Assembly (NCBI RefSeq): GCF_000203815.1
Contig: NW_004457713.1
Coordinates: 137,358-201,357, forward strand
DNA from: Dictyostelium fasciculatum
Taxonomy: Eukaryota
Reading direction: 5' to 3'
Length of the DNA: 64,000 nt
The notes beneath the pieces were generated by a model. That model was not told where the DNA came from. It did no database searches and saw only the letters and a program-made list of their open reading frames with translations. The translations under genes and the position numbers were made by a program. Positions within the stretch are counted from its first letter, which is position 1; every line of letters starts with the position of its first letter. Below are positions 11,945-39,508 of this stretch, piece after piece.

Positions 11945-11982
<38 letters not shown>

Positions 11983-13884: not shown

Positions 13885-15434
13885 TCACTTTCTTCTTCCA
13901 TTATTGATTCTATTCCAAAAGTTGTTAATTCTTTCATCAATATTATTGGAGGATACATCTTGTAATCTTAATTCAATTGATGGTCGTCTTCTAAAGCTAT
14001 ATAGATATTTGAATTTAAAAGTATCAAGAGTTGTATTTGCCTTGAGTGCTTTGGTAAATCTATCTTCAAGTTGTTTATCTCCATTTGTTTTATCCATTTT
14101 GATACCAATTGATTTAAGATTTGGATGACTATTTGTTTCAATAATCTTTATTATTGAATTGATAACATTTAAATCATCTAAAAAAAAAAGAAATTAATTT
14201 CTTTAGTTATTTATCTAGGTGTTTTTATATACATACCTGTTAATTCAATATATTTAAATTCAATTAATGATTGACTTAGAATATCAGTTGAAATAGAGGG
14301 GGAGGATGGTGATACACCAAATAGATATTGACAAATTGATAAATTGGTAATGGTTTGGTTGAATGCCAATGCCTTTTGAATTCTAATCTTTTCATCGTTT
14401 GTTAAATAAAGTTTTCCCAATTTCAAACTTGTCAATGTACTATTGGTTTTAATTGATTCAACTGCCATATCCAAATCATCAGCATTACTTTCCAATTGTG
14501 CCCTACCACGATAAGCACCAGCTTTGAAAAATATCAACTTGGATTCTTTTCTAAATACATTATATAAATGTTTCATTTGCATTCCATAACAATCGATTGA
14601 AAGTTGTTCGAGGTTAAAGTTGGTTGTTGAGTGATCCCAAAGAGGTTCAAAGCTGTCATATTCAGATCCTTCACCATCCGATCCAGTCTCAATACTCCAC
14701 GACAAATTCTTTACTTGTGTCATATGTTGCTTGATCGTTTCAATCATTGCAAGCATCGTATAACCATCTCGTGTTTCATAGTCCAATGTCAATGTTATTG
14801 AGGAAAGGTTTGCAAAGATTTTGGTCATTTTGAAACCCAATCCAGTCGTTTTACTCCCGCGAGAATACTTCCTCATGTAATCCTCGGTGAAAAAGCGTTC
14901 GAAATCCTCTGCAATATCGTATTCGTCCCACCAGCCGGTTGGAAAGTAGATGTGTTCCAATGATGATGTAAAGGGAAACTTTTCTTGCAATGCAATCTTT
15001 CTAAACATTTCATTGATGCAATTTGCTTCTTCTTGAGTGGTGGCTGGTTTAATGTCTAGTAGAAGTGATTTGAGACGTCTGATGATTGAGTACTTGTCGC
15101 TTTGTTGAACTTTGAGTAACTTGATCAATGGATGAACCTTTCTACCAGAAGGTTTGAATGGCTTATTGGTGAGCTCCCTGACACTGACTTGATCGATTCT
15201 TGAAGAGATTAATGCAAACCATCTTTTGTTGACTTTGGCGAGTTGATACAATTCATCTGTAAATGTAATGTATGTCTTTTCAAAAACCTCTGATCTTTCG
15301 TTCACCAATAAATCTATAATCTTGTTTTGAATCAATACTGGTAATGCTTCTCGATGATTTAAATCTCGATCATCTGTTGTTGTAGTTGAAGTCACCTTTT
15401 TAATAACTTTTTTTGATTTCTTTTTGGGTCCCAT
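13885..15434 (-). CDS. F-box/LRR protein, copy A of an inverted paralogue pair. Exons 15434..14237 and 14177..13885
   Basis: MGPKKKSKKV (basic N-terminus) then an F-box-like motif LPVLIQNKIIDLLVNE...LAKVNKRWFALISS (LPxxIxxxIxxxL ... VxKRWxxL). C-terminal LRR-like NxTLTSLKL / NQTITNLSI units. GTATGT donor in phase 1 after ..IELTG, 59-nt intron, TTTAG acceptor. Exon 2 ..NSHPNLKSIGIKMDKTNGDKQLEDRF..NNFWNRINNGRRK. The exon 1 length (1198 nt) is identical to copy B. Confidence 0.7.
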
Positions 15435-15443
15435 TTTGAAATA

Positions 15444-15470
15444 GATAAGTAAATACAAATGTTGGTTGTA
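15444..15470 (-). promoter_or_regulatory. Conserved upstream element GATATACAACCAAC(A/C)TTTGTATTTA about 10–35 nt 5' of the copy A start codon, shared by all three F-box/LRR copies
   Basis: Reverse complement of 15435..15480 reads ..gatatacaaccaacatttgtatttacttatctatttcaaaATG. Compare 35468..35497 (gatatacaaccaacctttttatttcaaaATG) and 37169..37195 (atatacaaccaacctttgtatttattta). Confidence 0.3.
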
Positions 15471-15992
15471 TATCTTTTAAAGTGTTTGATTATTGTCTAA
15501 CAATACAAAAAAATGATCGATCAAAAAGCCAACACCTAAGAGTTTGGTAGAAAAAAACTTGACCACCTATGAAACCTCTTGATGATCTTGTTTGTAAGAA
15601 TCGATGGTTTTGACCATGAATCAACAACAAGTCTATCTATATTTTTCACCTGAGAACAACTTCAAAGTGGCAATGATATTTAAATTATGGCGATGAGGTG
15701 TATAATATTTAAATTAATATGAATATCTTTATAACTCTGATGATCTACATAACTTTTAAAAAGTAGATTAATAAATAAATAAAATATGTTCTCATTTATT
15801 TAATAATAAAAATTCATACTTGGAAAAAGTTTAATGGTAGACCAGCACTCTTCTTTTTCATCCGCCTATTCTTACTCTTCACATCTTTGTCAAACTATTA
15901 GTTCTTATTTCTTTATTTGTTTTTATATCTCTATTCATCTACATATAGTTATACCTAAAAATAAAAGTAAAAGCAAATACTCATCAACTACT

Positions 15993-18900
15993 ATGAGTAA
16001 ACCAAGAAGAAATAGATCATTGAATACATTGATCGAGGATGGATTAGTTGATACTGAAGCTACCTGGTCTTTTACATGGAGTGATGTAACATACACAGGC
16101 ACTATTACAAAGAGTAAAGGTCATTATTGCTTCAGTGGTGCACAAAAGGATGGTCTAGTCATCACTGAACATGCATCTACAACCTTTATCCGTAACTTTT
16201 TAGCGTTGGACTCTAGTACTATTGTCGATGGCAACAAGATCATGTTTGTCAATAACAAGAGAATCTCTGATTATGTTTTATTGGAGAGCCCATCATCTTC
16301 AACTACATCAACTCCAACATCTAACAATAGTAGTAATAATAATAATAATGTTATGACTACACCGACAAGAGATGGTTCCGTTGTCAATCTTATTGAAAGT
16401 TTCAAGAGTATTGGCCTCACACTTTCACCACCGTCATCGATTACTACTCCACCAAGTACACCCTTTTCAAGTGGACCACCAAGATCACCTGCATCAGTGG
16501 TAGCACCAAATAGTAAACTATTGTCTGGCAACTCTAATTCCTATCATAGTAATATGAGAACTATTGCATACCAATTCTATAGAGAAGGTGATGATAATAT
16601 TCCTTTGTCACCAGTTAAAGATAATATCATTATCCCTGCCACGATCGTACCTTCCTCTCCTACTTCTACTACAACCTCTACAACTTCTACTACCTCTACA
16701 ACTCCTACAACTGCTACAACATTGATTTCAACTCCAACTAAAAAAGAACCAATTAAAATTGAATATGAAGATTCTACAATCAAAGCATCTGGTATTGGTA
16801 GATATTTCCATCTTGATTGTGAAAGATATTTTAATTGGTCAACTAAAAAGAAATCATCTTCCTCTACCTCTTCAACACCATCATCATCATCATCATCCTC
16901 TACTTCTACTTCTACTTCTTCTGATAATGAAACCATTTCAAATGCAATTATACAAGATGGTTTTGCATGGGAAGATAAGGTATTGGAAATTTTAATTCAA
17001 GAGAAACATAAAATCCATCAACCAGTCAAAGGTGCTCAAACCATTCCATTTGATCAAGTAGTAAAATTATTAAAAGAAGAAAAGGAGAATAGTTATATTG
17101 TACAAGCTACTTTGATTGCACCAATTAGTTTCCGTCAAAACATTCCAGACCATGTCAAATTTACACAGTCTATTCCAGATTTCCTTCGCATTGGTAGAAG
17201 TATTGGAGGAGGAAAGAGAAAACTCAAGATTCTCGATGCAAAATCAACGGCCAGTATTCACTTTGCACAAAAAGTACAGTTGGCCTACTACTATATCTGG
17301 TTGCAAGGAATTATTGAAAGCGAGAATATTACCGACCTTGAATTGGATGACTTTGGTGCCATCTTTTTAAAGGGACTCACCACTCCAATGGACTTTAATA
17401 TATTGGAGCCTGTACGATTGTTGAAACGTTTCCTCTACGGTGATAAAACCAACTCTCAATCACAAATGGTAAAGATCATTTCGACACCACGTGAAGAAAG
17501 TGTTTGGAGACTAACCGAAACATGTGAAGGTTGTGAATACCTTGAACAATGTACTGCACAAGCCAATTCAGAACTAAATCATAATGCCATTGCAAATGTT
17601 CAAATTGATACAATTACAAGTTTATTGGAATATCATCAACAAAAACAAGATCAATCAACAACTCCAACCAAATCAGCACCCATTAAAATGAATGAAATTG
17701 AAAAATTAAATAGTATAAAAGTTGAAGATGTAGATGATCCACAACTCAAAGTACAACTACTTAGATTAAAACCAAAACTACAAACGGTGCTATCAAATAC
17801 TGTCGTACCAACTGGTTATGTTGATGTAATGCTACCTTCTTATGAAGATATATCAATCTATTTATCTTTGGTATCACATCCCCTCAAACAAACATTTTAC
17901 AAATGGACTATTTTAAAGGTTGAAAACTCAATCTCTAAAACACCAAAAGATCCACTCAACATTGATTATCAATCTCTATCTCACAATACTATCTTTTATA
18001 ATGGTGAAAATTTTTATAGTTTAATCTTAAAATTAAATTCAATCTTTTCTGATGTATGTTAAAAAGCAAAACAAAACAAAAAACAAAAGATAAATATATT
18101 AATAATTTTATTTTATTTATTTATTTAGGCAATTAATACAAAATCAACATTACAAGTATTTACTTGGGATGCATTTGAAAAAAGTTATTTCTTAAAATCA
18201 TGTTATGAATTGTTAAAGAGATCATATGATATTGATGATAAGGAAATGCAAAGTAATTTGGTACATGTGATGGGAGTATTGATGGATAATTCAAATTGGA
18301 TTAATTTCAATATCGGTGGTGTCTACCCTCAAGAACCATTTTCATACAATGTTGGTGGTCAATCCCAAGGAAGTGGCCCTTCCAACTTCCCATTCATTCT
18401 CGTCAAAGATCAAATATTGAAATCATTGGCAATCAAGGTATCACCTCCCTTTTCAATTGGTGAGATTTCAAAAAAAGTTCTTTCCCTCGACACTATCCCA
18501 TCATCTCTAAACTCGGATTACATTTTTAATAACTATATTAAAAAGGATCACAAAGACAAAGAAGAAAATGTTGTTTTTAATGAAAGAACTGAACAATTAT
18601 TCAATTTAATGGCCCATCTTCGTTCTATCTTATTTACTGATATTTATAAACAAAAATCTCAAAAGGTAAAAAAACAATATTAATAATAGTACATATATAT
18701 ATATTTTATATATAATATATTAATATCATTATTTTATATTTTTAGTTTAATTTTAGAAAATTTTTAAATTATAATAATATATTGGTAAACAAATTATTAT
18801 ATTGTCATCAATTTGAATCAATGGAATCATATAGAGAAATTAAATCTGCAAGATCAAATCCATTGAGTCTTAATATTTATGATGGAAAATATTTAATCTT

Positions 18901-21162
18901 ACGAAAACTATCCAACCAACCAAACAAAGATGGTTTTTATAGATTCCAAGCAGATATCATTCCACAATATTATTCATATTTCCAACAAAAGCTAGCAGAC
19001 GCATTTTCACACTTTTGTTTAACACCAAACACACAAGATGGACTCAATTTCCTATCCAGTTTTAACGATATTAGTTATCAATCACAATATGGAGTTCGTG
19101 GAATGTGTGATATATCTGATTTTGAAATTGATCAAGTTGAAGCTTATCCAACTCAATATTTATTCAATGCAAAGATTTCTATCAAACCTTCAAAAAATTC
19201 AAATTTATTTAATGATTGTAATAGGTAAATATATAAAGAATAAACAAAACAAAAATCATTCTTACTAATCCTTTTTTTTTTTTCTATTTTTGTAGTAATG
19301 AATTTATATTATTTGAAAGATTTGATAATCATTTCTTTTCACAATATAAATGGTTGGTACAAGGATATGATAGTATTGATAGTCAAGGAACAGAAGAATC
19401 AACATTACTTGGGTTATTTGATAAACCATTGGAATGGATAAGGGAGGAGGAAGATTATAAGAAATTCAGCTTGGCCTTTACCAACACTATAGAAGCATTT
19501 AATCAAACGAGTAGTAATCATCCAGACCAAAGATTGACACTGACAAAATCACAAAGAGAGATTGCTATTAGTGTGGTGCAGAGAAGACTTCAATTGGTGA
19601 GAGGACCACCTGGAACGGGCAAGACCCACTTTTTGGCATTACTGGTACTCATGTTTTTCGAAACCATTTTTAGAATGAAGAGTCACGATACCTATACCAT
19701 TGTCATCTCTGCATTGACCCACACTGCCATTGATAATGCTCTGATTCGTATTGCTCAATTAAAGAAAGAGTATGAAGGGTATGCTGGTAGTGCATTGCCA
19801 TTCCACATTTACAAAAAGGAAAACAAACCACTTGCCAAGGAACTCGTCGAACAAGGAATTCTAGAACACAAGCAATTGGACAAGAAAACGTGTCCGAGAT
19901 TTATCGTGGTTGGAGCAACGTGTTGGGGTGTCAATACTTACAAGAATCCAATTGACTTTTTGATCATTGATGAAGCATCACAACTCCAAACACCTATTGC
20001 TGCGCTGGCAATCAACAAGGCACCTAGAGTAGTTGTTTGTGGTGATCCCAAGCAGTTGCCACCCGTTCTCCACGGAACCTATCACTCCAACAAGAGTCTG
20101 TCTGTCGATGAATACACATCCGATCCCAAAGTACACAAATCCATCTTCTCATGTCTCAAGGGATTACTCAGACACCATCTAGTCGCCGATCCATTCCTAT
20201 CACTCAACGAGAACTTTAGAATGACATCTGATCTATGTCAATTCTCTAGTCTCCTCTACGGACCATCCTACAGATGTGCAGAGACTGGTGCAAGAGAATT
20301 TAACATTCATACACTCCAACAGTCAAAAGAATGGAAGGATCTATTGTCACGCTCAACATCAGTTATTCAAGGATTGTATGGTGATCATAGATCGTGTCAT
20401 AGTATTGTACTAGACACCAAGTATCTTGGAAACCGTCGTGTTGAAGTTGAACTGGTCAGAGAAATCTATCGTTTTGAATTGGGATTGTTCAAGAGTAGTA
20501 GATCATCATCGACTACATCGGCCAGTGAATTGGAAGATCAATTTTGGAAGTCAAAACAATTGGGTATTATTACACCTTTGAATATGCAACGTATTGATAT
20601 GCAATCAATGATTAGTTCTGAACAGTATCTTGCTGGTAGTCAAGAATTCAAACCATCGGTTGGTACCGTTGAAAAGATGCAAGGACAAGAATTTGATACT
20701 GTTGTAGTTTGTTACAATGGTTGGAACAGTGGTAGTGGCAAGACTCTAGACTTTATCTTTAATCTTAATCGTCTCAACGTAGGTTTCACCCGTTCCAAGA
20801 CTAGATTAATTTTAATCATCTCTGAATCACTACTTCGTCCCAATCAATTGGTCCTAAATAATGCAAAGACTAGCAAAGCTTATAATCATCTCCTCAACTA
20901 TGTTCAAAACTCTTCTATTCATAAATTTATTATCAAACAAACCAACATTTATCAAAAAACACCAATTAGAGATACAACTCCAACTACTCCTACTACTCCA
21001 ATTTCACCTTTTAATTTTAATATTATTAATAATAATAATAATAATTCACCATCAACTCCAAATAATAATAATCAAACAAATAATATTCCATCAACACCAG
21101 AAACATTACTTCAACAAGAATTTATTAGAAAATTAAATTTAAACAAAGAGGAGGAGGATTAA
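15993..21162 (+). CDS. dna2: DNA2-like nuclease-helicase: RecB/Cas4-type PD-(D/E)xK nuclease with a 4-Cys Fe-S motif plus a Upf1-like SF1B helicase. Exons 15993..18053, 18129..18665, 18746..19224, 19296..21162
   Basis: Four long ORFs join in frame. The junctions are TCTGAT|GTATGT, CAAAAG|GTAAAA and AATAG|GTAAAT, each with a T-rich xAG acceptor. Nuclease signatures: an upstream Cys (YFHLDCERYF), ..ILDAKST.. ((D/E)xK) followed by QKVQLAYYY (QxxxY), then CEGCEYLEQC. The C-x2-C-x5-C spacing with a distant first Cys is the DNA2/Cas4/AddB iron-sulfur pattern. Helicase motifs: GPPGTGKT (I), ISALTHTAIDNAL (Ia), IIDEASQ (II), VVVCGDPKQLPPV (III), MQGQEFDTVVV (V), NRLNVGFTRSKTRLILI (VI). Long Ser/Thr/Asn low-complexity inserts in exon 1. 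The annotated start is the ATG at 15993 (MSKPRRNR); the upstream part of the ORF looks like 5' UTR. Confidence 0.7.
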
Positions 21163-21536
21163 ACAACACATTTAAATGTTTACAAAGAAAGAAAGAATAA
21201 AGAAACTTTTCTTTAGGATTAATTTTAAGTTTTGTTTTTTTTTGTAGTTTTGTTTATTACAATTCTTCTTCTTCCTATTTCCATCCCATTGAAACCCTTT
21301 CCACCGGTGGAGGTTAAATGAAAATATATTATATTATTATTTAATTTGTTGTTATTTTGTTATTTATAGTTATATGATTATTATTATGTGATCGTCGATT
21401 TTCTAATCCCAACAAAGAAATAAATAGTGTGTTATGTTGTTTATAATTGGAGGAAAAGAGAAAAAAGTTATTATTAATTATTAATTATTATTATGTTGTT
21501 GTTGATTATTATTATTATTAAAAATTGATGGTGTGT

Positions 21537-22703
21537 TTATTCATCACCAACAATGATGGAGGTTGGAGACAAGAACTTGTATGGTGGGATGATAAGATTT
21601 TCTGGGGCTGGACCCTTACGAATACGACCAGCGTTATCATAATGAGAACCGTGGCATGGACAGTACCATCCACCAAAGTCACCACCACCGGCAATTGGAA
21701 TGCAACCAAGATGGGTGCAGACACCAATGAGGACGATCCATTCTGGATCCTTGGCACGCTTGACATCTGCTTGTGGATCGACCAAAGTAGAAACGTCGAC
21801 GGCTTGGCTTTGGGAGATTTCATCGGCCGAACGATGACGAATAAAGAGTGGCTTGCCTCTCCATTTCAAGGTGACGGCGGTGGCTTCTGGAATCGATGAC
21901 AAGTCGATTTCAATTGATGAAAGAGCCAAAATATCTTGACCTGGGGCCATGGTGGAAAGAGCAGAGACAACAGTGTTCTTGGCCATAGCGGCAAGACCTG
22001 AAGCAGCAGCTCCAACTACCAAATAGGTGTAACCACGTCCCTCTGGGTCAGCGGCTGAAGAGTGCTTTCTATATTTATCAAAGTTTGGTACACTAGTAGT
22101 ATTGTCAACCATATAACCACTAGAGTAGTTCATTTGACCATTAACCACTATGTAGTATTTGTCAAAAAAGAGAGTCATTCATCATCCATCATTATTATTA
22201 TTATTTAGTAGAATGATAGAGTTTTTCATTTAAATTATCATCAAATTTTGCATGTGTATTAGATAGATATGTGTAGAGAAGAGGAGAGGGAGGAAGATTT
22301 TAATTAGTATCAATTCATGCAACCTTTGTCTATCTTGTTTTAAATATTATTATTATTATTAAAGAATTAATTATTATTATTCTTTCTTTTTGTTTCATTT
22401 GCATGAATGATCCCAGTCACATGCGAAGATCTTCGATTCAAAAAGTTATTGTTGTTGTTGTTGTTTCATCTCCTCTTTCTTGTTTATAAATCTGTATTCT
22501 GTTGTAGTTGTTGTTGTTGTTGATCAATTTTTCGCATTCGTGTTCTGTTTACATCTGATGTGTCATTCATTGTACACTACACTATTTCTCCTATTGTTTT
22601 GTTGTTCTGACTGTTGCTGCTGCTGCTTATAGTTTTATATGTATGATTCTTACATGATTGTCTGGCCAATGGTGTAACTCTTGATACGAATCTTGATAAC
22701 ATT
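21537..22703 (-). CDS. rip1: Rieske iron-sulfur protein of the cytochrome bc1 complex. Exons 22703..22655 and 22147..21537
   Basis: Main exon encodes ..VPNFDKYRK..YLVVGAAAS..KWRGKPLFIRHR..CTHLGCIPIAGGGDFGGWYCPCHGSHYDNAGRIRKGPAP. Both 2Fe-2S boxes are present (CTHLGC, CPCHGS). A 49-nt upstream exon encodes a textbook mitochondrial presequence MLSRFVSRVTPLARQS. It uses a GTAAGA donor in phase 1, a 507-nt intron and a CATAG acceptor that restores the frame. The first exon and the long intron are inferred (confidence about 0.55); the main exon is certain. Confidence 0.8.
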
Positions 22704-23027
22704 CTTCTCTTTCTTATTATATTGCTGAAGGTGCAATCGAAAATGTAATGTAGGTCACCCTCTCACAGGTTGTGTGTGCATAAAAACTGCAACACAGCGA
22801 AAAAAAATTAGCAAAAAAAACAAAAATTAAAAAAAATTGATTTTTTGTTTCTATGGTGGACTGGAAGAAGATCACAATTTCATCTGCATCGTTAAACGAG
22901 ACTACTACATCTAGGATGTTTTAATCAATAGTAATTACATTGAATGCAAATATGTGCAATTGATTTATATATAAATAGTACTTGGAGGGTTGAATTCACT
23001 ACAGACTGAACATGTGTTCGTTTATTT

Positions 23028-23046
23028 CCTCTCTCTCTCTCTCTCT
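23028..23046. repeat. (CT)n microsatellite in the Rieske/RFC4 intergenic (putative bidirectional promoter) region. A second (CT)n lies at about 23138..23157
   Basis: cctctctctctctctctctttctttcc read directly. Confidence 0.7.
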
Positions 23047-23371
23047 TTCTTTCCTCATCGTTTATTTGTGGTACTTGTGGCATTCCATTACTACTGTAGT
23101 GATGCCTAGGCACGATTATGATTGACAAAACCTTTTATTTCCTCTCTCTCTCTCTTCTAAACTTTTGACATGATTATTTGTCCGACCCATTATGACTGCA
23201 AACATTAATACTACTGCATGTTTGTTTGGGATGAGTTCATAGTGGTCACCACCGCGTCTCTGCCAAAAAAAAACTTGAAATTAGGAGGGAAAGTAGAACT
23301 TCTCAGTGCGCAGGTTTTGATAGTCTCTCATTGTTTTCTCTTAATTAAACATATATATATATTTAAACAAC

Positions 23372-24769
23372 ATGTTTTATAACAAGTCAACAGGAAAGAA
23401 TACATCAAATAGTGCACCATCTATAGGGTCTGGTGGTATACAGAAAGCCCCTGAACCTTGGGTATCAAAATAGTATGCTCTGTCTGATGTTGTCTTAATA
23501 AACTCTTATTAAACTAACAAACTATTATTATTATTATTATTATTACAAACAATATAGTCGACCAAGAACAGTAGATGATGTAGCACATCAAGATGAAGTT
23601 GTTCGTGCATTAAAGAAATCATTGGATGGTGGAGCTGTATGTGTTGTTTACAACATTGATTGATTGATATATAAATACTAACCCTACATCATGATTGTCA
23701 TCTCTCTCTAGTTACCACATTTATTATTCTATGGACCACCAGGTACAGGAAAGACATCAACTATTCTTGCTATTGCTATGGATTTATATGGACCTGATTT
23801 GATTAAAGATAGAGTTTTGGAATTGAATGCCTCAGATGAAAGAGGTATCGAGATTGTTAGAACAAAGATTAAGAATTTTGCTTCATTTACTGTTAATAAT
23901 ACTACTGTCGCGTAACTATCAATAATAGATTAATAATCATTCCTCATATAGATCATGAGATATTAATATTTATTAATATTCAATTTGTAGAGGAAAACAA
24001 GTACCATCATTTAAATTGATTATATTGGATGAAGCAGATTCAATGACACAAGATGCACAAGCAGCATTACGTAGAACTATAGAAAATACAAGCAAGACAA
24101 CTAGATTCTGTTTATTGTGTAACTATATCACTAGAATCATTGAACCATTGTCATCTCGTTGTGCAAAGTTTAGATTCAAACCTCTCAAATCAGAGGCAAT
24201 GGGTGAAAGATTAAAATATATTGCCGACCAAGAAGGTGTCAACTTGGCCAATGAATCTACACTCGACGCTATTCACACTGTTTCTCAAGGTGATATGCGT
24301 AAAGCTATCACTTTTATGCAATCTGCTCATAGATTTTATGCTTCAAAATCAATTACTGATGCTAATATTTATGATATTTCTGGGGTAAATATAAATATAA
24401 ATATAAATAATAATAATAATAATTATAATAGTTTTACTAATTCCTTTTTTTTCTATGTCTTTATAGTCTGTAGAACCAAAAACATTAGAATTATTTATCA
24501 ATTCATGCAAGTCTGGTGATTTTTACAAGGTTAGACATTTAGTAGAGAGGGTGATGGCACTTGGATATCCAGCATCACAAATTATTTCACAATTGTTTGA
24601 TATCGTAGTTCAACCTTCTATACATTTTAACAATATACAAAGAACTAAAATAGCAATCAAGATTGGACAAATCGATAGAAACCTTGTCGATGGATCAGAT
24701 GAATTCTTACAACTATTCGATTTGGGTGCATATATGATGAAATGTTTTGATGAAATGGAAATGAATTAA
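23372..24769 (+). CDS. rfc4: Replication factor C small subunit RFC4. Exons 23372..23472, 23558..23636, 23712..23911, 23991..24384, 24467..24769
   Basis: Spliced product (358 aa) ..PEPWVSKY|[26 protein letters not shown]|[57 protein letters not shown]..|[73 protein letters not shown]..|SVEP... It aligns along its whole length with human RFC4 (Walker A, DEAD-like box, SRC motif) and is similar in length to human RFC4. All four introns are 75–85 nt with GTATGx/GTAAAT/GTAACT donors. Confidence 0.85.
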
Positions 24770-25407
24770 TAGATAGATAGATAAATAGATAGAAATAATA
24801 ATAATAAAATAGAATATTAAATTATTACTATTTTTTATTATTATCAAAATTAAATGAATCAAATTTATTTATTTATTTTTATATCTTTTTATTATTTATT
24901 TTTATATACTTTCCAAAAAGGGGATGATGGCTAGGGGTCTTTTCAAACTTATTTCTGTGATGCACTGCCGTTTTCAATTTGCAATTGTTTTTTAGCTGGA
25001 TCATCAGGTAAACATTCAGCCTGAACAATTAGTGTAAAACTAATTTCTTTCTCTCTTTTGTGGTCTTCCATTTCTTTGATTACATAATTATGATCTTTTG
25101 CCTTGGTTTCAAACTCTTGATTTTGTCAACCTTCTTTGAGTTTGAAAAAGTACAAGATTGATTTTCTCCCAGGGTTCTTTTCACGGGTGACACAGAAAAA
25201 CCATTTTCTTTCCAATGCAATGAGGATGCAGTGGGCTCATTATCAGTATTTTTGGTTCACAGTGGGTGATCACAAACACACTGAGAGATGCTGATGTTGG
25301 TTGATGAAGAGTGCTTACCCCCACACCATACTATACTGTATTTAATCACTATCCTCGTTTCAATGTACATTGGTTATGTATATATAAAAAAATCGCTATT
25401 TATTCAA

Positions 25408-27753: not shown

Positions 27754-28285
27754 TTACTAACTATTACTACTATATCTATTTATCTCTATATTGATTGCTT
27801 TTAAAAAGTTAATACTTCTTTTGTATGAATGAGAGCAATAATAACAAGAACAACCCCAAATGTGGTTAGTCATCTTCATTTTTCGAAAATTAAATTAATT
27901 TATTAATTTAATTATCCAAAACAATATTCTCTCAAAAAAAAATAAAAATAATAATAAAAATGATTATTGTAAGATGAAAAGGTCTCCATTACCAAGGTCG
28001 TCGTCTGATATTCGGTTTGAATCGATAAGAGAGAGGAGGGAGAATGTGAGAGCATTCTGGTCGGCTAAAAAAAATTAATTAAAAAAATTAAATTATCGAG
28101 TGACTCGTCCTTCGCTGTGCTCAAAACCGAAATCGATTTACATTATTGAGGGGTTATTACCCACCACCCAACACAGATAATACTTTATTATTATTTATTA
28201 TTTCTTTATTTTATTTAAATAACGAGGAAGAAACTTGAACACTTTATTGTTCTCTAGAAAAATATACTTATTCACCCCAACAACA

Positions 28286-29146
28286 ATGTCAGTTCATCCA
28301 CACATCAAGAGAGTCATCTTTACTGATCAACAAATTAAGGATCGTATCATAGAAGTTGGCAAAGAAATTACAAATGTATGATGATCATATACACACGCAC
28401 AAACATAAGTATATTCTATAAAGAGAGGAGTGAAGAGTGGAATGGAGAGTGGTAATGAGTGAGGTTGTATAGTTTGTTATGTTTTGTTTTGTTTTGTTAA
28501 AACAATAAAATAAATAAATCAATGGTTTAAACAGTCTTATGTTCTTTGTTTTTCTTTTTCTTTTTCTTTTTTTTTGGTTACATATTTTTGAGAACTTCAT
28601 CATTTCTTTGTTTTATTTGATTTATTTTCGATTTATTAATGATATATTCTTTTCTTTTTCTATTTTATTTTTTTTTAGGATTATAAAGATTCAAAAGAAT
28701 TAGTATTAATTGGAGTATTAAAGGGATCATTTATGTATATGGCAGATTTGGTTCGTGCCATTAATCTCCCAAATACTCATGTTTCCGTTGATTTCATGTC
28801 GATCTCTTCGTATGGTCATGGAACCACTTCGTCTGGTGTCGTTAAAATTAATATGGATCTCAAGGCTGATATTGCTGGCAAGGATGTCATTGTCGTCGAA
28901 GATATCATCGACACTGGTTTGACACTCCAAAGCCTCCTTGTTAACCTCCAAGCACGTAATCCTGCCTCTCTCCAAGTCTCTGTTCTCCTCCGTAAAAAAG
29001 AAGCACTCAAGGTAGAAGTACCATGTAAATACATTGGTTTCGATATTCCAATTGTTTTCATTGTTGGCTATGGTTTGGATTTTGCCGAAAAATATAGAGA
29101 ATTGCCATACCTTGGTGAACTCAAAGAAGAAGCATACAAAAACTAA
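28286..29146 (+). CDS. hprT: Hypoxanthine-guanine phosphoribosyltransferase. Exons 28286..28375 and 28679..29146
   Basis: Exon 1 MSVHPHIKRVIFTDQQIKDRIIEVGKEITN, GTATGA donor, 303-nt intron. Exon 2 DYKDSKELVLIGVLKGSFMYMADLVRAI..VDFMSISSYG..VIVVEDIIDTGLT.. carries the PRPP-binding motif (VVEDIIDTGxT) and the HPRT loop. 185 aa in total. Confidence 0.85.
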
Positions 29147-29531
29147 CCATCATGACACACATATATATTAATTATCTATAAATCCCTCCCTTTAAATTGT
29201 AAACAACTCAACCCAACTCAACTCTCTTCTATAATCTTATTATTATTATTATTATTATTATTTTTTTTTTTGATTGATCAAATGATATCATATTATATAT
29301 TTGAAAGAGATAGAGAAGAGGAAATAGAATCCCTTATTTATTTATTTATTTATTTACAAAAAGTGTACAAGGTTGGTTGGATGATATTATGTTAGATTAG
29401 GTTAGTTAATTTTACAAATGATTTGTTTAAAAGGTTGTGTCACCATGGTGAATATTAATTAATATTAAATTGTGTGATTTGATGATGAGATATTTACAAA
29501 GATTATTTCAAAGGGATGTGATTAAGTTAAT

Positions 29532-30687
29532 TTAGTTTATCATATCACAAATAGTATGAACCATAGCAACACCAGAACTACAAGATGGAACGATTGATTT
29601 ATAGATGGTGGACGATAGAGAAAAACAAGACTTTTGTTTTTGACAGTATAGAGTACCACAGTTTTTGATGGCACACGATGACTCTGTGAATTCTACGAGT
29701 GAGTTGCACTGGTTTTGGTTCATACAGTTGTAGAATGCTACACTGGCATCGCCACATGCAGTGGTGGTGACTTGACCCTGTGAGAAACATCTGCCTTGAC
29801 CATTACCACTACACAAACATGATTCACCAACCTTGCATCCCGACCCAGTCTCAAGGTTACAATTAACAGTTGGTGGAGTTGAAGTCATAAAGGAGGCAGC
29901 GTCTTGAACAGATTCACAAGTGTTACTGGTAGTATTACACAACAGTCCTTTAGTATGATCACATACTCCAAAGTCAACGGATGATGTTGAACAAGCACCA
30001 CCTAGACCAACAGAGAATGGAGCTACACAGATACTAGATTGACCGTCATGTTGAAGTTGACAAATAGCATTGGATTGACATTTTTGTGTGTCGTCTGAAC
30101 AAGTTTCACCTAGACCAACACGATTGGAACATGTGGAGGTGACGGAACTACAGAATTGATTGAATGAACATTGAATGTCTGATGAACATTTTGATGAGGG
30201 GTTGGCACAAACATTGTACATGCAGTCTAGTCCACTACCACATTCATGGTCTTGTTGACAGGATTGACCTAGTTGACCGTAGATCATCTCTGAGCAGACA
30301 CCATATCTACAGGTACTAATCCCCTTACATTGTTTGTCATAGATACAAGGTCCACCCTTTTCAGATTGTGGTTGACATTCACCATAAAATGGATTACAAA
30401 ATAATCCAGTTGAACATAGTGATTCTATATTTGTATCTGGTATCGTTCCACTAAAGTAATTAATTAAATAATTAAAAATTAAAAAGTATATATATTATTT
30501 TTGTTAATATTATAATATTTATAATATTTATATAATTTTGAGAATAAGTTGTAGGTACATACCAAAATTGACCGATACTACCAGAACATTGAACTTTGCT
30601 TCTAAGATCAATACATGAGGAGGATATTAATGAAATATTTAAAATAATAAATGATAATGTCAATAATAATTGTTGTTTGTTGATCAT
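29532..30687 (-). CDS. Secreted cysteine-rich protein with Dickkopf-N-like Cys repeats. Exons 30687..30563 and 30450..29532
   Basis: Exon 1 encodes a signal peptide (MINKQQLLLTLSFIILNISLISSSC..). GTATGT donor in phase 2, about 112-nt intron, TTTAG acceptor joining ..GSIGQF|CGTIPDTNIESLCSTGLFC... The product has about 45 Cys in repeated units (e.g. GQSCQQDHECGSGLDCMYNVC, GETCSDDTQKCQSNAICQ). No TM or GPI tail. Same family architecture as the gene at 1440..2816. Confidence 0.6.
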
Positions 30688-32503
30688 TTTTGTTGTTGTT
30701 GTGAGATTTAAATTGATAAATCAAATGTGATTGTATGTTTAAATAATTATTTGATGAATTGAATTATTTGATTGATTGTGTTATTATTTTTAGGAACCTT
30801 AAAAGTAGGGTTATTTATATTTTGTGATTGCGAAACAAACATGAGGGCAAAGGATTTATGAGAAAAGTTGGAAAGTTGGTTGATACCAAATTTATAAGAT
30901 AAGAAACCTCCCTTCGTACAAAGGGAGTTGGTTGGTGTGTTGTGGGGGTAATAACAAATCACGACGATGGTACCCAATTGGTTGCTGCTGTTGCTGCTGC
31001 TGCTGCTGTTTCTGATTGTTGTGTTTTCAAAGATTTTGATATAACTAGATCACTGTCAATAAACAGTTTAAATCTTGATCGATGTCCAAATACCAACGAT
31101 TCACACAAGTTGTGGTGGTACCCTATCATTCTTTTTTTGACAGATGAAAGAGCAGCAGCAGATGTTGTAAGTTTCCTTTCCAATACTTTTCTGCCAAAAC
31201 CGCTAAACCCTTGCCTCTTGTCTGCAGTGGTGGTGGTTTGTCAAGATCTGTGAGAGAGAGCGGTTGCTGCTATTAGCTGGTATGTTTAGATTACTCGCGC
31301 GGTGCTCATAGCGAACACCACCACCACCATCACCAGAGAAACGATCGTGAATGGGCGGTTCTAAACGTTTACTTAAATCCATTCATTGAATGTATCCTTA
31401 TTTACAATGATGGAGGAGGAGGAGGGGGGGTGCAACAGAGAATAGCCCCTATGAAATATCCATAAAAGATATACAACACTGCAAAGATGCCAGCACAACT
31501 ACTCTTTCTCTCCTGTTGTGTGTGGAGGGGGTTAGCAACCAATGGCGCAATCAGAGTTCAATCTCCAATGATCAATTTCATCGGAATGATGAAACTCTCT
31601 ATTTTATTATTTTTTTAATATAATTCATTTTATAGGGGAGAAGATATCTAGTACAATGAGATCAATCAAGACAGTGATCTACAACGCAACAACCCTAACA
31701 GATAAAGAAAGGAGAAGTTGTAACTTTATTGGTACAACAGCAGCATTAGGAAATAATCTTTTGGATTGAGGGGCAGATCAATGATTTTGTTGTAGCGGTG
31801 ACTGCCAGTCAGTGGCAGGTAGTTAGTTGAACTACTATAAATGAGATGTAAACCATCAATCAAATAGATCTAAATCTATAGTCTAGGCTAGAGAGGAGAG
31901 TAGGTAGAGTCTCTCTAATAACTTATGACTATTAAAAGTAAACTACCGAAATAGGTAGTAAGTGTTGGTGTCCCACGTTGAAGAGGGTGGTGGTATTCCC
32001 TTAATCGTTAGTTAACTATGTAAGATTAACAACAATTATATTACATTGGTGTTTATTACCCCCAAAGAAGAAGAAGAAGAATAGTTGATTGTGTGAGTGA
32101 GGAGCTTTGGAAATGACTGTCATGACATTAATCAATCAATCAATTAATCAATTAATCAGTGGGGTAAACAAATTATTATTATTATTATTATTATTATTAT
32201 TTTTCATTCATTCATTCATTGGTTAGAATATATAGAAATTAGATAACATGTCAAACATGTCATCCATCATTGCTAATTCTATAGAATTTAAATATTAATA
32301 ATATTATTTATTTTATAGAACACCTAAAAGTATTTAAACACCATGGTAACTATCATCATACAAACATACATACAAACAAACATACAAACAAAACAATTAA
32401 CCAACTAAATCAACTTACTATAGTAATATTATTAATTATCATCAACAACAAAAACAAAAACAACAATATTTATTTATTTCCAAAATAATCCTATACTTTA
32501 ATC

Positions 32504-33229
32504 ATGTTTAAATTATCATTAAGATCTTTATTATTAATTTCAATCATTATTATTTCAACAATTAATAGTGGCAGTGGTGGTGTTATTGTTGTTAGAGGAG
32601 AGCAATATATATTCCAAGGTAGTTTTAATAAAGATGATGGTGGTAGAATTACAATTATCAAAACTTTGACTGGATGGTCATTGACAAGTGACGTTGCAAT
32701 GAAGACACCAATGCAAAACAAAGTTGATATTATCATTGATTTTGTACCTGCCAAAGGTTCAAATACCTCTGATGAAGGTTTCCCATTAAAGTTTGTGTCT
32801 ACTGGTTTCCCCACTCCTTCAAATGTCACCATCTACCAAGTCAGTGTCAACGATGTCTCTGGTGTACCATCAATGGACGATGCAGTTGCTCAAGCCACCA
32901 AAACCAATGCTACCGATCGCTTTACACTCCAAATTGAAGATAAAAAGAATAGCTTTACTGCTCCATTAGCCTATGCCCTTCAATCGACCACTGGAGCCAC
33001 CACCAATAATCTAACAACTACTACTTCTTCACCCTTCACTACCACTACATCTGGTAATCTAACAACTACTACTTCAACCTCTACAACTACTTCATCATCT
33101 ACTACAGGTGTTGATGAACCAGTTACTACAACTACAACAACTAGAGCAACCACTGGTAATTCAAACATACTCATCCCATCAACATTATTAATCTCTATCA
33201 TTGTTACCATTATTTCAATTCTTTTATAA
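32504..33229 (+). CDS. GPI-anchored, Thr-rich cell-surface glycoprotein, single exon
   Basis: ATG at 32504. N-terminal signal peptide (MFKLSLRSLLLISIIIISTINSG), a globular region, then Thr/Ser-rich mucin-like repeats (NLTTTTSSPFTTTTSGNLTTTTSTSTTTSSSTTG) and a C-terminal hydrophobic tail (LIPSTLLISIIVTIISILL) that fits a GPI attachment signal. Confidence 0.6.
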   Translation: MFKLSLRSLLLISIIIISTINSGSGGVIVVRGEQYIFQGSFNKDDGGRITIIKTLTGWSLTSDVAMKTPMQNKVDIIIDFVPAKGSNTSDEGFPLKFVSTGFPTPSNVTIYQVSVNDVSGVPSMDDAVAQATKTNATDRFTLQIEDKKNSFTAPLAYALQSTTGATTNNLTTTTSSPFTTTTSGNLTTTTSTSTTTSSSTTGVDEPVTTTTTTRATTGNSNILIPSTLLISIIVTIISILL

Positions 33230-33456
33230 ATCAACTCAACTAAATATAGTTATAGTTAACATAATTGTTATATAGATATATTACTCATCCATTCACTCAA
33301 CAACAACAACAACAATTAATAAAAGTTGTGTATTTGTATTTATTAAATAAAATAATTGATTAATTAATTAATTTACGATATTGTTTGTTTTGAATTTGGA
33401 ACATCCAAAAAAATTGGAGGGAAATTGTATAATATATTATTTAGTTTTGAAATCAT

Positions 33457-35304
33457 ATGATGAGGAGAAGTGTAAAGGTTAAGAAAGAGGTGGAAGAAGA
33501 AGAAGATTACTTTGGAGGTAGTGAAGAGGAGAAAGAAGAGGAATCAGAGTCAGAGGAGGAAGTTAAACAAAAGAAGAAAAGAGTAAAACGAGAGACTGTT
33601 ATTTCGACGACCACGACGACAAAGACTAGTAAACGAAGATCATCAATTAAAATTAAAGAAGAATCAGACGAGTCAGAGGAAGAATCAGAATCAGAATCAG
33701 AATCAGAGTTATCAGATTCAGATATAGATATAGAGAAAAAAAGAAAAGTAGAACATTCAATTAAATATCATCAATTTAAAGCAGATGATATTAAATTGAT
33801 TAGAACTAATTTATTACAATGGTATCAAAAGAATAAAAGAGATTTACCTTGGAGATTGAAATCATTACCAATAAAAGACAAAGATGGTAGTGTGACGGTC
33901 AAACAACTAACACAACAAGAACATGCATATAGAGTATGGGTTAGTGAAATAATGTGCCAACAAACTAGAATATCTGTGGTGGTTGATTATTTCAATAGAT
34001 GGATGACTGAATGGCCAAGTGTTGGTGATTTGGCAAGAGCAACATTGGAAGATGTCAACAAGGTTTGGGCTGGACTAGGTTACTATCGTCGTGCAAAACA
34101 TTTACATCTTGGTGCACAGTATGTTGTCAGTAACCTCAAATCTATCATTCCAGGTACTCCAGATGGTTTGGTAAAGATACCTGGTATCGGTCCATATAGT
34201 GCTGGTGCCATTTCATCCATTGCCTTCAACAACTCTGTACCACTTGTCGATGGTAATGTCATTAGAGTACTAAGTCGATTAAGGGCAATTGGTTCAGATC
34301 CAAAGAAAAAAGATTCAATTAAATTGCATTGGAAGTTGGCCGGTGACATTGTAGACCCTTCTCATCCAGGTGATTTTAATCAATCACTTATGGAATTAGG
34401 TGCAACAGTTTGTACAATCACCTCACCACTTTGTAATCAATGTCCAATCAATACAATATGCAATGCTAAAAAAGAAATGGAAAAAGATTCAAAGACATCA
34501 AAAACAACAACAACAACAACAACAACAACAAAGAATTCCATTTCAAATTATTTTATAAAGCAAACAAATAATAATAATAATACAATTAAAAAAGTTGAAG
34601 AGAAAGAGGAGGAAAAGGAAGAGTCTGAACCGAAAATAATGGATATTGAGGATTTATGTAAAGTTTGTGATAGTTGGTCAGATACTGATTCACCAACTAC
34701 AACTGTTTGTAAATACCCAAAAAAGGTCAAGAAAACAAAAGCAAGAGAAGAGAATGTTCAAGTATTTATCATTCAAGATGTAGATACTGATCTGTTTTGG
34801 GTGGTTCAGAGACCTGATCCTGGACTATTGGCAAATCTTTGGGAATCTCCTTGTCACATTACTACTTTGACGACCGCAACTAAAAAAAAGGCAAAGACGA
34901 AAAAGGATCAAGACTCTGATTCAGATTCAGATTCAGACTCTAGTTTGTCAGATGAAAAAGAACAAGTACAAGTTGGAAAAAGAAAAATGAAGGAGAAGAA
35001 GAATAGTAGTAGTATTAAAGTAAAAGTAGAAGAGAATCAAATTAAAGATACAATTAAAAAAATATCAGCGGCAATGTCAAATGCAATAAGTATTCAATCG
35101 ATTAAATCATTGGGTAGTACAAAACATATATTTTCTCATATCATACAACAATTGGATGTTCATTTGGTGCAAGTTAAATTCAATCAAACCAAAAACAAAT
35201 CTACCGTCAAGGATAAACAAAATCATAAATGGGTAACAAAAGATAAATTAATGTTGATTGGTATATCCAATCAAATGAAAAAATGTTTTAAATTAATTAA
35301 ATAA
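33457..35304 (+). CDS. mutyh: MutY homologue (A/G-specific adenine DNA glycosylase, MUTYH), single exon
   Basis: LLQWYQKNKRDLPWR, VWVSEIMCQQTRISVVVDYFNRWMTEWPSVGDLA, the HhH motif VKIPGIGPYSAGAISSIAFN and the [4Fe-4S] loop CTITSPLCNQCPINTIC (C-x6-C-x2-C-x5-C). C-terminal NUDIX-like domain. The N-terminus has acidic/Ser low-complexity and the C-terminal half has Lys/Ser-rich inserts. Confidence 0.85.
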   Translation: MMRRSVKVKKEVEEEEDYFGGSEEEKEEESESEEEVKQKKKRVKRETVISTTTTTKTSKRRSSIKIKEESDESEEESESESESELSDSDIDIEKKRKVEHSIKYHQFKADDIKLIRTNLLQWYQKNKRDLPWRLKSLPIKDKDGSVTVKQLTQQEHAYRVWVSEIMCQQTRISVVVDYFNRWMTEWPSVGDLARATLEDVNKVWAGLGYYRRAKHLHLGAQYVVSNLKSIIPGTPDGLVKIPGIGPYSAGAISSIAFNNSVPLVDGNVIRVLSRLRAIGSDPKKKDSIKLHWKLAGDIVDPSHPGDFNQSLMELGATVCTITSPLCNQCPINTICNAKKEMEKDSKTSKTTTTTTTTTKNSISNYFIKQTNNNNNTIKKVEEKEEEKEESEPKIMDIEDLCKVCDSWSDTDSPTTTVCKYPKKVKKTKAREENVQVFIIQDVDTDLFWVVQRPDPGLLANLWESPCHITTLTTATKKKAKTKKDQDSDSDSDSDSSLSDEKEQVQVGKRKMKEKKNSSSIKVKVEENQIKDTIKKISAAMSNAISIQSIKSLGSTKHIFSHIIQQLDVHLVQVKFNQTKNKSTVKDKQNHKWVTKDKLMLIGISNQMKKCFKLIK

Positions 35305-35467
35305 ATAAATACCAAGTGTCTGCTAAAATAATTAAACTATTTATTACGTTTAAAAAAAAAGAAAAAACGAATGAAACATCGAGTAACCGATCTTTTTTCT
35401 GTATTGTCCAACAATATTCAAACAAATAAACATATTATAATTAGATATTATATTATATATACATACA

Positions 35468-35494
35468 TAGATATACAACCAACCTTTTTATTTC
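35468..35494 (+). promoter_or_regulatory. Copy of the conserved upstream element (GATATACAACCAACCTTTTTATTTCAAA) immediately 5' of F-box/LRR copy B
   Basis: See the feature at 15444..15470. The identical core ATATACAACCAAC precedes all three paralogous copies. Confidence 0.3.
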
Positions 35495-35497
35495 AAA

Positions 35498-37062
35498 ATG
35501 GGACCCAAAAAGAAATCAAAAAAAGTTATTAATACAGTGACAACAACAACAACAACAGATGATCTAGATTTAAATCATCGAGAATCATTACCAGTATTGA
35601 TTCAAAACAAGATTATAGATTTATTGGTGAATGAAAGATCAGAGGTTTTTGAAAAGACATACATTACATTTACAGATGAATTGTATCAATTGGCCAAAGT
35701 CAACAAAAGATGGTTTGCATTGATCTCTTCAAGAATCGATCAAGTCAGTGTCAGGGAGCTCACCAATAAGCCATTCAAACCTTCTGGTAGAAAGGTTCAT
35801 CCATTGATCAAGTTACTCAAAGTTCAACAAAGCGACAAGTACTCAATCATCAGACGTCTCAAATCACTTCTACTAGACATTAAACCAGCCACCACTCAAG
35901 AAGAAGCAAATTGCATCAATGAAATGTTTAGAAAGATTGCATTGCAAGAAAAGTTTCCCTTTACATCATCATTGGAACACATCTACTTTCCAACCGGCTG
36001 GTGGGACGAATACGATATTGCAGAGGATTTCGAACGCTTTTTCACCGAGGATTACATGAGGAAGTATTCTTGCACGAGTAAAACGACTGGATTAGGTTTC
36101 AAAATGACCAAAATCTTTGCAAATCTTTCCTCAATGACATTGACATTGGACTATGAAACACGTGATGGTGGTACGATGCTTGGAATGATTAAAACAATCA
36201 AAGAGCATATGACACAAGTAAAGAATTTGTCTTGGAGTATTGAATGTGGATCGGATGGTGAAGGATCTGAATATGACAGTTTTGAACCTCTTTGGGATCA
36301 CTCAACAACCAACTTTAACCTCGAACAACTTTCAATCGATTGTTATGGAATGAAAATGAAACATTTATATAATGTATTTAGAGAGGAATCCAAGTTGGCA
36401 TTTTTCAAAGCTGCTCATTATGTATTGAAAAGCAATACTGATGATTTGGATATGGCAGTTGATTCAATTAAAACCAATAGTACAATGACAAGTTTGAAAT
36501 TGAAAAACATTTATTCCAATTTAACAAACGATGAAAAGATTAAAATTCAAAAAGCATTGGCATCCAACCAAACCATTACCAATTTATCAATTTGTCAAGA
36601 TCTATTTGGTGTATCATCGTCCAATTCAACTGATATTCTCAGTCAATCATTAATTGAATTCCAATATTTTGAATCAACACAATTTAATATTAGTGGTATG
36701 TATACGACGTATAATGCGTGATAGAAACAAAACATCGAGTGTATAAATATTTACATTCATTCCATTTTTTTTTTTTAGAACCATTAAATAATTTAAATGT
36801 TATTAATTCATTAATAATGATTATTGAAACCAATAGTCATCCAAATCTTAAATCGATTGGTATCAGAATGGATAAAGATTATTTAGATAAACAACTCAAA
36901 GATAGATTTATCAAAGCATGCAAGTCAAATACAACTCTTGATACTTTTAAATTCAAATATCTATATCCTTTAGAATCATTTGAATTAAGATTACAAGATG
37001 TATCATCATCCAATAATATTGATGAAAGAATTAACAACTTTTGGAATAGAATCAAAAACTAA
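35498..37062 (+). CDS. F-box/LRR protein, copy B of the inverted paralogue pair. Exons 35498..36695 and 36779..37062
   Basis: Same architecture as copy A (13885..15434). Exon 1 is 1198 nt and ends NISG with a GTATGT donor in phase 1; 83-nt intron; TTTTAG acceptor. Exon 2 EPLNNLNVINSLIMIIETNSHPNLKSIGIRMDKDYLDKQLKDRF..NNFWNRIKN. Long stretches are nucleotide-identical to copy A, e.g. from GTCAACAAAAGATGGTTTGCATT through ..GAGGATTACATGAGGAAGTATTC. Confidence 0.75.
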
Positions 37063-37185
37063 CCACTGGGTTTTTTTGATCGATCTTTTTTTTTTGTATT
37101 GTTCAACAACAATAATAATAATAATAATAATATTCATATATATAAACACATATTTATACATTCATAACATATATACAACCAACCT

Positions 37186-38720
37186 TTGTATTTATTTAAG
37201 TTTAAAGAATCCAAGTTGACATTCTTCAAAGCCGGTGCTTATCGTGATACGGCAGAATTGGAAAGTAATGCTGATGACTTGGATATGGTAGGTGATTCAA
37301 TTAAAACCAATAGTACATTGGCATGTTTGAAATTGAAAAACATTTATTCCAATTTAATTAAACAATGAAAAGATTAAATTACAAAAAGCATTGGCCAAAG
37401 TCAACAAAAGATGGTTTGCATTAATCTCTTCAAAAATCAATCAAGTCAGTGTCAGGGAGCTCACCATGAATCCATTCAAGCCAGCTGGTAGAAGACTTCA
37501 TCCAATTATCAGACTACTCAAAGTGCAACAAAACGATAATTACTCTATAATATTAGACGTCTCAAATCACTTGTACTCGACATGGAACCACCAACAACTC
37601 AAGAAGAAGCAAATTGCCAAAATGGGATGTTTACACCATCATTGGAACATCTACCTTTCAACAAACTATTGGGACGAGTATCATATTGCAGAGGATTTCG
37701 AGGGCTTTTTCACAAAGGATTTCAGTAGAAGATATTCTAATGGGAGTAGATCAATAGGATTTTTTAGAATGACCGAAATCTTTGCAAACCTATCCTCTAT
37801 GACATTGAAATTGGATTATGAAATACCAGATGGTGGTTCAATGCTTGCAATGATCCAAACAATCAAGAAGCATATGACACAAGTTAAGAATTTGTCGTGG
37901 AGTATCGGATGGTGAAGGATCTGGATATCCTGATATCGAACCTCTTTGGGAGCACTCAACAACCAACTTTAACCTCGAACAACTTTCAATCGATTGTTAT
38001 GGAATACAAATGAAACATTTATATAATGCCTTTTGCGAAGAATCAAAACTACAAAGTTTTAAAGTTGGTGGTGATGGTGATCCAATGGAATTGGAAAGTA
38101 ATGCTGATGACTTGGATATGGCAGTTGATTCAATTAAAACCAATAGTACATTGACAAGTTTGAATTTGAAAAACATTGATTCCAATTTAACAAACGACGA
38201 AAAGATTAGAATTCAAAAGGCATTGGCATTCAACCAAACTATTACCAATTTATCGCTTGGCCCAATCCAAGGTTTATTTGGTGTATCATCCATTTCAACT
38301 GATATCATAAGTCAATCATTAATTGAATTTAAATATTTAGTATCAACTGAATCCCATATCAGTGGTATGTATATATATTTAATTGTACTTACCTTTTTGT
38401 TATTATTTTTTTTAGAACATTTAAATGTTATCAATTCAATAATAATGATTATTGAAACCAATAGTCATCCAAATCTTAAATCGATTGGTATCTCTTTAGA
38501 TATCAATGATTTAGATAAACAACTTATTGATGGATTTACCAAAGCATTCAAGGCAAATACAACTCTTGATACCTTTAAATTCAAATGGTTTGAATTAAGA
38601 TTACAAGATGTATCCTCCAATAATATTGATGAAAGAATTAACAACTTTTGGACTAGAATCAATAAAGAAGACGAAAGTGAGTATACTCGTCATTCTAGAA
38701 GAACAAGAAGAACTGAATAG
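37186..38720 (+). pseudogene. Rearranged, frameshifted third copy of the F-box/LRR gene (tandem to copy B)
   Basis: The ORF fragments 37186..37368, 37391..37915 and 38010..38720 are all homologous to copy B, but the order is scrambled. A 3' exon-1 piece (FFKAGAYR..SIKTNSTL) precedes the 5' piece (AKVNKRWFALISS.., lacking the MGPKKK/F-box start). The frame breaks at about 37915 (SWSIGW*). The exon-1 donor GTATGT (about 38366) and an exon-2-like tail (..NNFWTRINKEDESEYTRHSRRTRRTE) are retained. Confidence 0.6.
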
Positions 38721-38812
38721 AGCATCAATAAAATTAAATGATTGTTGAAACAAACGTTTATCTCAATCTTTAATCGATTTGTAGCAGTGTATCCATCCAA
38801 AATATATTTTGT

Positions 38813-39439: not shown

Positions 39440-39508
<69 letters not shown>

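Follow-up and report, generated by a model that had tools for sequence, protein, structure and literature searches.

Probable ectopic gene conversion between inverted leucine-rich repeat paralogues at the ends of a 20-kb block in a social amoeba

Inverted paralogues on the same chromosome can keep near-identical tracts through non-allelic gene conversion, and conversion between paralogues is favoured by their proximity (PMC3403216, PMC3924832). The palindromes of the Y chromosome and the ectopic conversion described in Drosophila are systems of this kind. In another related system, Drosophila inversions are accompanied by inverted flanking duplications that arise from staggered breaks (the model of Ranz et al. 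2007, as summarised in PMC7584159). Here, a locus with features of both systems is described in a stretch of 64,000 nucleotides from the social amoeba Dictyostelium fasciculatum (Cavenderia fasciculata; contig NW_004457713.1, positions 137,358 to 201,357), referred to below as the window. Two related two-exon genes for a leucine-rich repeat (LRR) protein, copies A and B, bracket a block of about 20 kb in inverted orientation, and a disrupted third copy, C, lies beside B. The sequences point to ectopic gene conversion between the inverted copies, not selection, as the source of the mosaic of identity between A and B, with a probability of roughly 0.8.

Like the Y-chromosome palindromes and the Drosophila cases of ectopic conversion, A and B are inverted paralogues on one chromosome that share tracts of near identity. 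However, the arms at this locus are only about 1.7 kb long and enclose a unique spacer of 20 kb, and their identity is a short mosaic, whereas that of the Y palindromes exceeds 99.9% over tens of kb. The social amoeba is also haploid, unlike those conversion systems. As in the Drosophila inversions with staggered breaks, an inverted duplicated segment is present at each end of the block, although at this locus the inversion is only putative and the duplicated segment comprises an entire gene together with its promoter. A young duplicate pair is evolving together here; the phenomenon is real, but it is ordinary and of a known kind, at a locus that had not been described.

Splicing and translation showed that A and B are both intact. 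Copy A (13885..15434, minus strand) encodes 496 amino acids (aa) and consists of exon 1 (15434..14237, 1198 nt), an intron of 59 nt (14236..14178) and exon 2 (14177..13885). Copy B (35498..37062, plus strand) encodes 493 aa, with exon 1 at 35498..36695 (1198 nt), an intron of 83 nt (36696..36778) and exon 2 at 36779..37062. The coordinates and two-exon models that a preliminary description of this DNA had given for both copies were exact, and so was its account of an equal exon 1, a GTATGT donor and the same phase (phase 1) in the two genes. The equal length of exon 1 is nevertheless a coincidence, as four in-frame indels in its 3' part (−12 in B; −6, +9 and −15 in A) sum to zero. A repeat search confirmed that the copies are inverted and about 20 kb apart. 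The longest ungapped inverted repeat that it found measures 940 nt and is 95% identical between its left arm (14511..15450, minus) and its right arm (35482..36421, plus), with 20,031 nt between the two. These are the only long repeats within the window, and tblastn of the window likewise returned A, B and C only. Aligned by BLASTN, A and B are 88.0% identical over 1632 columns with 14 gap openings; over the gene, the gap-free identity is 92.1%. An identity below about 85% without long identical tracts, a direct orientation of the two genes or an intact third copy, each named beforehand as speaking against the proposed history, was not found.

The identity between A and B is distributed very unevenly. 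It amounts to 95.2% in codons 1-63, rises to 99.2% in a core at 15245-14862 (coordinates of A; three mismatches in 384 nt) and falls to 93.3% in the adjoining segment 14861-14550. In the 3' part of exon 1 it is 89.4% with a further 42 gap columns, in the intron 74.6% with 33 gap columns, and in exon 2 85.6%. Within the core lies a tract of 348 nt that is perfectly identical in the two arms (14862..15209, minus, in A; 35723..36070, plus, in B). The central 600 nt or so of exon 1 had been called essentially identical, which holds for these 348 nt and approximately for the 384 nt around them, but not for a 600-nt interval (15300-14700), which contains 20 mismatches and is 96.7% identical. To judge the run length, the observed differences between A and B were shuffled in 20,000 permutations. 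The longest run obtained by chance was 114 nt when all differing columns were counted and 172 nt when each indel was counted as one event, and an analytic bound for an identical run of 348 nt is about 1e-11. Draft assemblies can homogenise near-identical repeats, and a perfect tract might therefore be an artefact in which the reads of one copy served for both. This is extremely improbable here, as the identity fades gradually on both sides without sharp joins, each copy has flanks of its own, a Sanger read exceeds the tract in length, and the frames of A and B are both open despite different in-frame indels.

The synonymous divergence (dS) between A and B is 0.026 in codons 64-191 versus 0.151 in codons 192-496 (Fisher p = 0.006), and in the same core segment copy C differs by about 17% from both A and B. 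Since dS drops within the tract and C is so divergent there, the identity of the core cannot be attributed to constraint on the protein. The preliminary description had offered gene conversion or a very recent duplication as explanations. The former was borne out by a mosaic beyond chance, by the drop in dS and by histories that are incongruent among segments; the latter is overstated, as dS is about 0.15 outside the converted tract.

A very recent duplication of the whole gene could still be proposed if the 3' divergence had come from fast adaptive evolution of substrate-binding LRRs. The ratio of nonsynonymous to synonymous divergence (omega) reaches 0.91 in codons 296-399 and 0.67 in exon 2, and in families of F-box/LRR adaptors the repeats often diversify. 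However, silent sites, too, are about sixfold more diverged in the 3' half (dS 0.15 versus 0.026), the intron retains just 74.6% identity with its 33 gap columns, several independent indels set the 3' parts apart, and the 3' ends and flanks of A and B are unlike. Positive selection on a protein cannot yield silent, intron, indel and flank differences, which makes this account highly improbable. For the whole A-B comparison, omega is 0.54; it is 0.1-0.3 for the first 295 codons and 0.7-0.9 for the repeats at the C-terminus, the regional values being based on small counts, and every coding indel between the two is a multiple of three. Thus, both genes look functional and appear to be maintained under moderate purifying selection. 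The regional pattern, small as the counts are, fits a conserved docking end combined with a freer binding surface.

Further evidence for conversion came from comparing the three copies segment by segment. In exon 1, the segment-wise dS is 0.07-0.18 between A and B and 0.27-0.67 between either of them and C, while in exon 2 all three pairs are equidistant (0.13-0.15). At its 5' end copy A is like B, but its tail and 3' flank are like those of C. The junction structure described below and the segment-wise distances fit no single order of duplication, and exchange between the copies is therefore required, including exchange between inverted copies 20-25 kb apart. The most recent A-B conversion would have covered the 5' half of exon 1 and left the perfect 348-nt tract within a falling gradient of identity. 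Segment-wise distances were used in place of the site patterns AB|C, AC|B and BC|A; the latter were dropped as a signal of topology because three sequences give branch lengths only. A separate A-C conversion tract (13901-13976 in A, 38590-38665 in C, 99% identical) was also considered and dropped, as B is nearly identical there too and the segment is conserved in all three copies. Several points weigh against conversion as the full account. Three sequences are too few to resolve the direction, number and timing of the events, replacement of the 5' half in one recent event would give a similar picture, and the word 'ongoing', used in the preliminary description, is a suggestion drawn from one assembly.

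The copied unit is about 1.75 kb long and comprises a promoter flank of approximately 100-150 bp, the two-exon gene and about 100 bp of 3' flank. Alignment showed that the 5' flank of A (15435..15530, minus), which forms the inner boundary of the left unit, is homologous to the 5' flanks of B (35383..35497, plus) and C (37063..37209, plus). The coding region of B ends at 37062 and the 5' flank of C starts at 37063, so that the stop codon of B directly abuts the pseudogene unit. B and C therefore form a head-to-tail tandem, the junction of which removed the original C-terminal tail of B. That tail is still recognisable elsewhere: a relic of it with the 3' flank of A (13775..13884, minus) is homologous to C and absent from B, and the 3' flank of C (38721..38815, plus), which is homologous to that of A, marks the outer boundary of the right cluster. 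The homology of tail and 3' flank between A and C amounts to 99% over 76 nt and 87% over 55 nt. Copy A carries one additional nucleotide in the tail relative to C, which results in an earlier stop.

All three copies share an upstream module, located at 15446-15530 (minus), 35383-35490 (plus) and 37063-37185 (plus). It consists, in this order, of GATCGATC, a T-run, TGTATTGT, an AT-rich variable spacer and ATATACAACCAAC, the last about 20-30 bp before the start codon. A strict pattern search for a shared promoter motif gave no match, for the flanks differ by indels and the motif is visible only in the alignment. The module may be a promoter or 5' untranslated region element specific to the family, and it persists even on the pseudogene.

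Copy C (37063..38815, plus) is a tandem chimeric pseudogene beside B. It had been described as rearranged, with its 5' and 3' pieces swapped and a frameshift near 37915. The copy is indeed disrupted, but the pieces are not swapped: its body (37391..38720, plus) is collinear with A and B from codon 64 to the end, and codons 1-63 are replaced by a relic of codons ~312-357 that was detected by tblastn and alignment (186 nt; 37210..37395, plus). The relic contains in-frame stops and one +1 frameshift, and joins the body at codon 64 through an ATTGGC microhomology at ~37390-37395. Its identity is 85% with A and B but just 78% with the internal copy of the same segment in C, and it shows the ancestral state at A-specific and B-specific indels alike. 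The relic is most readily explained as the remnant of a further copy, which would make C a chimera. Copy C has more lesions than the one proposed: the body carries +2 at 37549, −33 at 37629, −2 at 37646 and −11 at 37903 in addition to the defects of the relic. The intron of C is conserved (38365..38415, 51 nt), the stop codon is at 38718-38720, and an open frame persists over the last ~250 codons. Relative to A and B, omega of C is 0.2-0.5, and the copy was therefore constrained for most of its history and inactivated late.

The tandem B-C junction and the relic inside C bear out the claim of repeated duplication and rearrangement at this locus. At least three to four rounds of copying of the gene unit would have taken place in this part of the C. 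fasciculata genome, with one copy (A) inverted and 20 kb away from the tandem pair B and then C. The 5' end of C would have become chimeric through microhomology-mediated junctions with the relic of a further copy. No tRNA genes that could point to retroelement targeting were found.

The single-copy block of housekeeping genes between the units (15531..35382, about 19.85 kb) was assigned by Pfam. Its content agrees with the preliminary description as far as a superfamily 1 (SF1) helicase (DNA2-like), a Rieske protein, a small subunit of replication factor C (RFC), Avl9, a phosphoribosyltransferase and MutY are concerned; the labels of a Cys-rich gene and a glycosylphosphatidylinositol (GPI) protein were without significant support. 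The block also holds two unassigned open reading frames (ORFs). The DNA2-like gene is apparently split over at least three long ORFs on the plus strand (15834-18062, 18210-18683 and 19354-21162). The first of these encodes 742 aa, is rich in Ser and Thr, gives a weak match to a Cas4-like nuclease (E 0.35) and contains short direct repeats at 16290-16740.

With the inverted orientation and substantial identity that characterise substrates of non-allelic homologous recombination, the arms are, on sequence grounds, a plausible substrate for inverting the 20-kb block. The same recombination intermediates that lead to conversion could, if resolved as crossovers, invert it. Ectopic repair usually yields conversion with no crossover. 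No trace of a past inversion was detected in the window. An active switch, in which crossovers between the arms flip the block recurrently so that both orientations segregate in C. fasciculata, would be served by inverted arms of 940 nt at 95% identity with 348 nt perfect, and conversion indicates that the arms do pair and recombine. On the other hand, one assembly provides one orientation, and the arms are not only short but also, beyond their core, diverged; such a switch is improbable.

Alternatively, the inverted layout could stem from a past inversion. Staggered breaks followed by fill-in could have left one unit at each end of the block, with conversion acting on the two units later. This proposal is compatible with all the sequence data presented here and with conversion itself, and accounts equally well for the layout, in which the block is bounded exactly by the two copies, their 5' flanks pointing inward. 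A duplicated end of 1.75 kb is, however, long for filled-in overhangs, and the opposite orientation of the block was seen in no outgroup: the 20-kb neighbourhoods of MUTYH in Heterostelium album, Tieghemostelium lacteum, D. discoideum and Polysphondylium violaceum have no gene in common with the window and thus no shared synteny, so that they say nothing about the orientation of the block. An origin by staggered breaks is considered unlikely, if less so than the switch.

The protein encoded by these genes appears to be restricted to dictyostelids. An exhaustive phmmer search of 1.84 billion representative sequences yielded only four relatives, three from C. fasciculata and one from Tieghemostelium lacteum. 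Beyond the family, it gave weak matches to LRRs of the ribonuclease inhibitor (RNI) type (E 1e-4 to 5e-4) within residues 320-454. The preliminary description had called the copies F-box/LRR genes, of which the LRR part is solid and the F-box part atypical. Pfam assigned no family to A or B even at E <= 1-10, neither an F-box nor an LRR family, and a search of the PDB with the full-length family profile gave nothing significant (E >= 0.05 to the LRRs of leiomodin and Skp2). The structure predicted by AlphaFold2 (AF2) from a six-sequence alignment (predicted template modelling score 0.73) contains a regular strand/helix solenoid from about residue 210. A prediction from the single sequence had a confidence (predicted local distance difference test, pLDDT) of 42 and was not used. 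Foldseek matched the model to the LRRs of NLR proteins, COI1, TIR1 and FBXL3 with E values of 5e-7 to 1e-4, so that the assignment to an LRR solenoid of the RNI/FBXL class is solid at the level of the predicted structure.

Two groups of proteins resemble the family most closely. The FBXL-type receptors of Skp1-cullin-F-box (SCF) ubiquitin ligases (Skp2, FBXL2/3/17, TIR1, COI1 and MAX2) have, like A and B, a short helical N-terminus followed by a curved alpha/beta LRR solenoid of similar size; the family motif L-A-x-V-x-K-x-W-F aligns with the VCKRW helix of F-boxes. Unlike these receptors, A and B match no F-box or LRR family of Pfam, the family has about 12 extra residues between the LP and KRW helices or a shifted register, and the sequence identity with any solved FBXL protein is 9-17%. 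The RNI-type LRR proteins (ribonuclease inhibitor, RanGAP1, the LRRs of NLR proteins and LRRC34) account for the only sequence matches outside the family, through 'LKxNxTLTxLxL' repeats in residues 320-454. In contrast to theirs, the repeats here are irregular and few, the context of a NACHT or GAP domain is missing, and the N-terminal half is specific to the family.

The N-terminus is putatively F-box-like. An invariant family motif, Y..LA.V.K.WF..S, aligns with the VCKRW helix of F-boxes, and hhalign of the N-terminus of five family sequences against seven PDB-verified F-boxes gave a probability of 90.6% and an E value of 1.3e-6 over 32 columns, which is moderate profile-profile support. Two relatives, P0002 and P0004, contain partial F-box matches below the threshold (profile positions ~19-38, E 0.03-0.19, 12-14.5 bits against cut-offs of 20.5-24.3), and the Tieghemostelium relative bears the UniProt name 'F-box domain-containing protein'. 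Three results weigh on the other side: A and B match neither F-box family of Pfam (PF00646 and PF12937) even at E <= 1-10, the N-terminal family profile retrieved no F-box protein from the sequences of the PDB, and the N-terminus of the AF2 model is of low confidence (pLDDT 54-65). Membership of A and B in the F-box family is thus unproven, and their N-terminus is best described as an atypical, F-box-like one. The sequences and the predicted fold nonetheless make a function like that of an FBXL-type substrate adaptor of an SCF ligase the most likely one, with somewhat better than even odds, and we infer that the A and B proteins would act as such adaptors. It was also suggested that the locus represents the expansion of such a family in progress. 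This is overstated for a small family with four relatives and one local copy in decay, for which birth-and-death together with concerted evolution is the better description.

As a social-amoeba case of inverted paralogues evolving in concert, the locus is small and clean: the presumed ligase-docking end is covered by the conversion tract, while the ligand-binding repeats are left free to diverge. It is also a candidate site for structural polymorphism. A much stronger combination, in which the block exists in both orientations in populations and the genes belong to an unrecognised dictyostelid class of SCF adaptors with an insertion-bearing F-box, a homogenised 5' (Skp1-docking) half and a diverging LRR half, would be very improbable as a whole. 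Current understanding is unchanged, since birth-and-death evolution, ectopic conversion and inverted repeats as potential substrates of inversion are all well established.

The family has been overlooked by current annotation, as it has no Pfam domain and copy A is contained within a fused model of 1277 aa. The protein of A is identical (100%) to residues 1-496 of P0001 (EGG19027.1, DFA_02270), and the predicted protein of B has no entry of exactly the same sequence in the protein collection. The public model DFA_02270 (1277 aa; 11285-15434, minus) joins A to the next downstream gene by means of a GTGAGT donor at 13888, which spans the stop codon of A, and an acceptor at ~13453. The resulting intron would be about 436 nt long, versus 51-83 nt for the family's own intron; the median length of dictyostelid introns is about 80-100 bp (PMC4683709). 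The reading frame of copy C continues across the same GTGAGT up to a stop codon. Judged from these sequence features, DFA_02270 is probably an annotation fusion of two genes. A second model of the family that seems to be fused is P0005 (EGG15337.1, C. fasciculata), an ABC-G transporter model with a family member at its C-terminus (residues ~950-1232).

The G+C content of the window (about 32%) and neighbouring genes such as those for a formiminotransferase-cyclodeaminase, ribophorin II, Avl9 and MutY are in keeping with a dictyostelid. To the right of the cluster, a long (ATT)n microsatellite (39437-39500) lies in or beside a Mis12-like ORF (39347-39754, minus), and similar AAT/ATT runs are scattered through the block. 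A pseudouridine-synthase ORF at 40551..42290 corresponds to DFA_02281. The largest ORF of the window encodes 1748 aa and is located at 48079-53325 on the minus strand.

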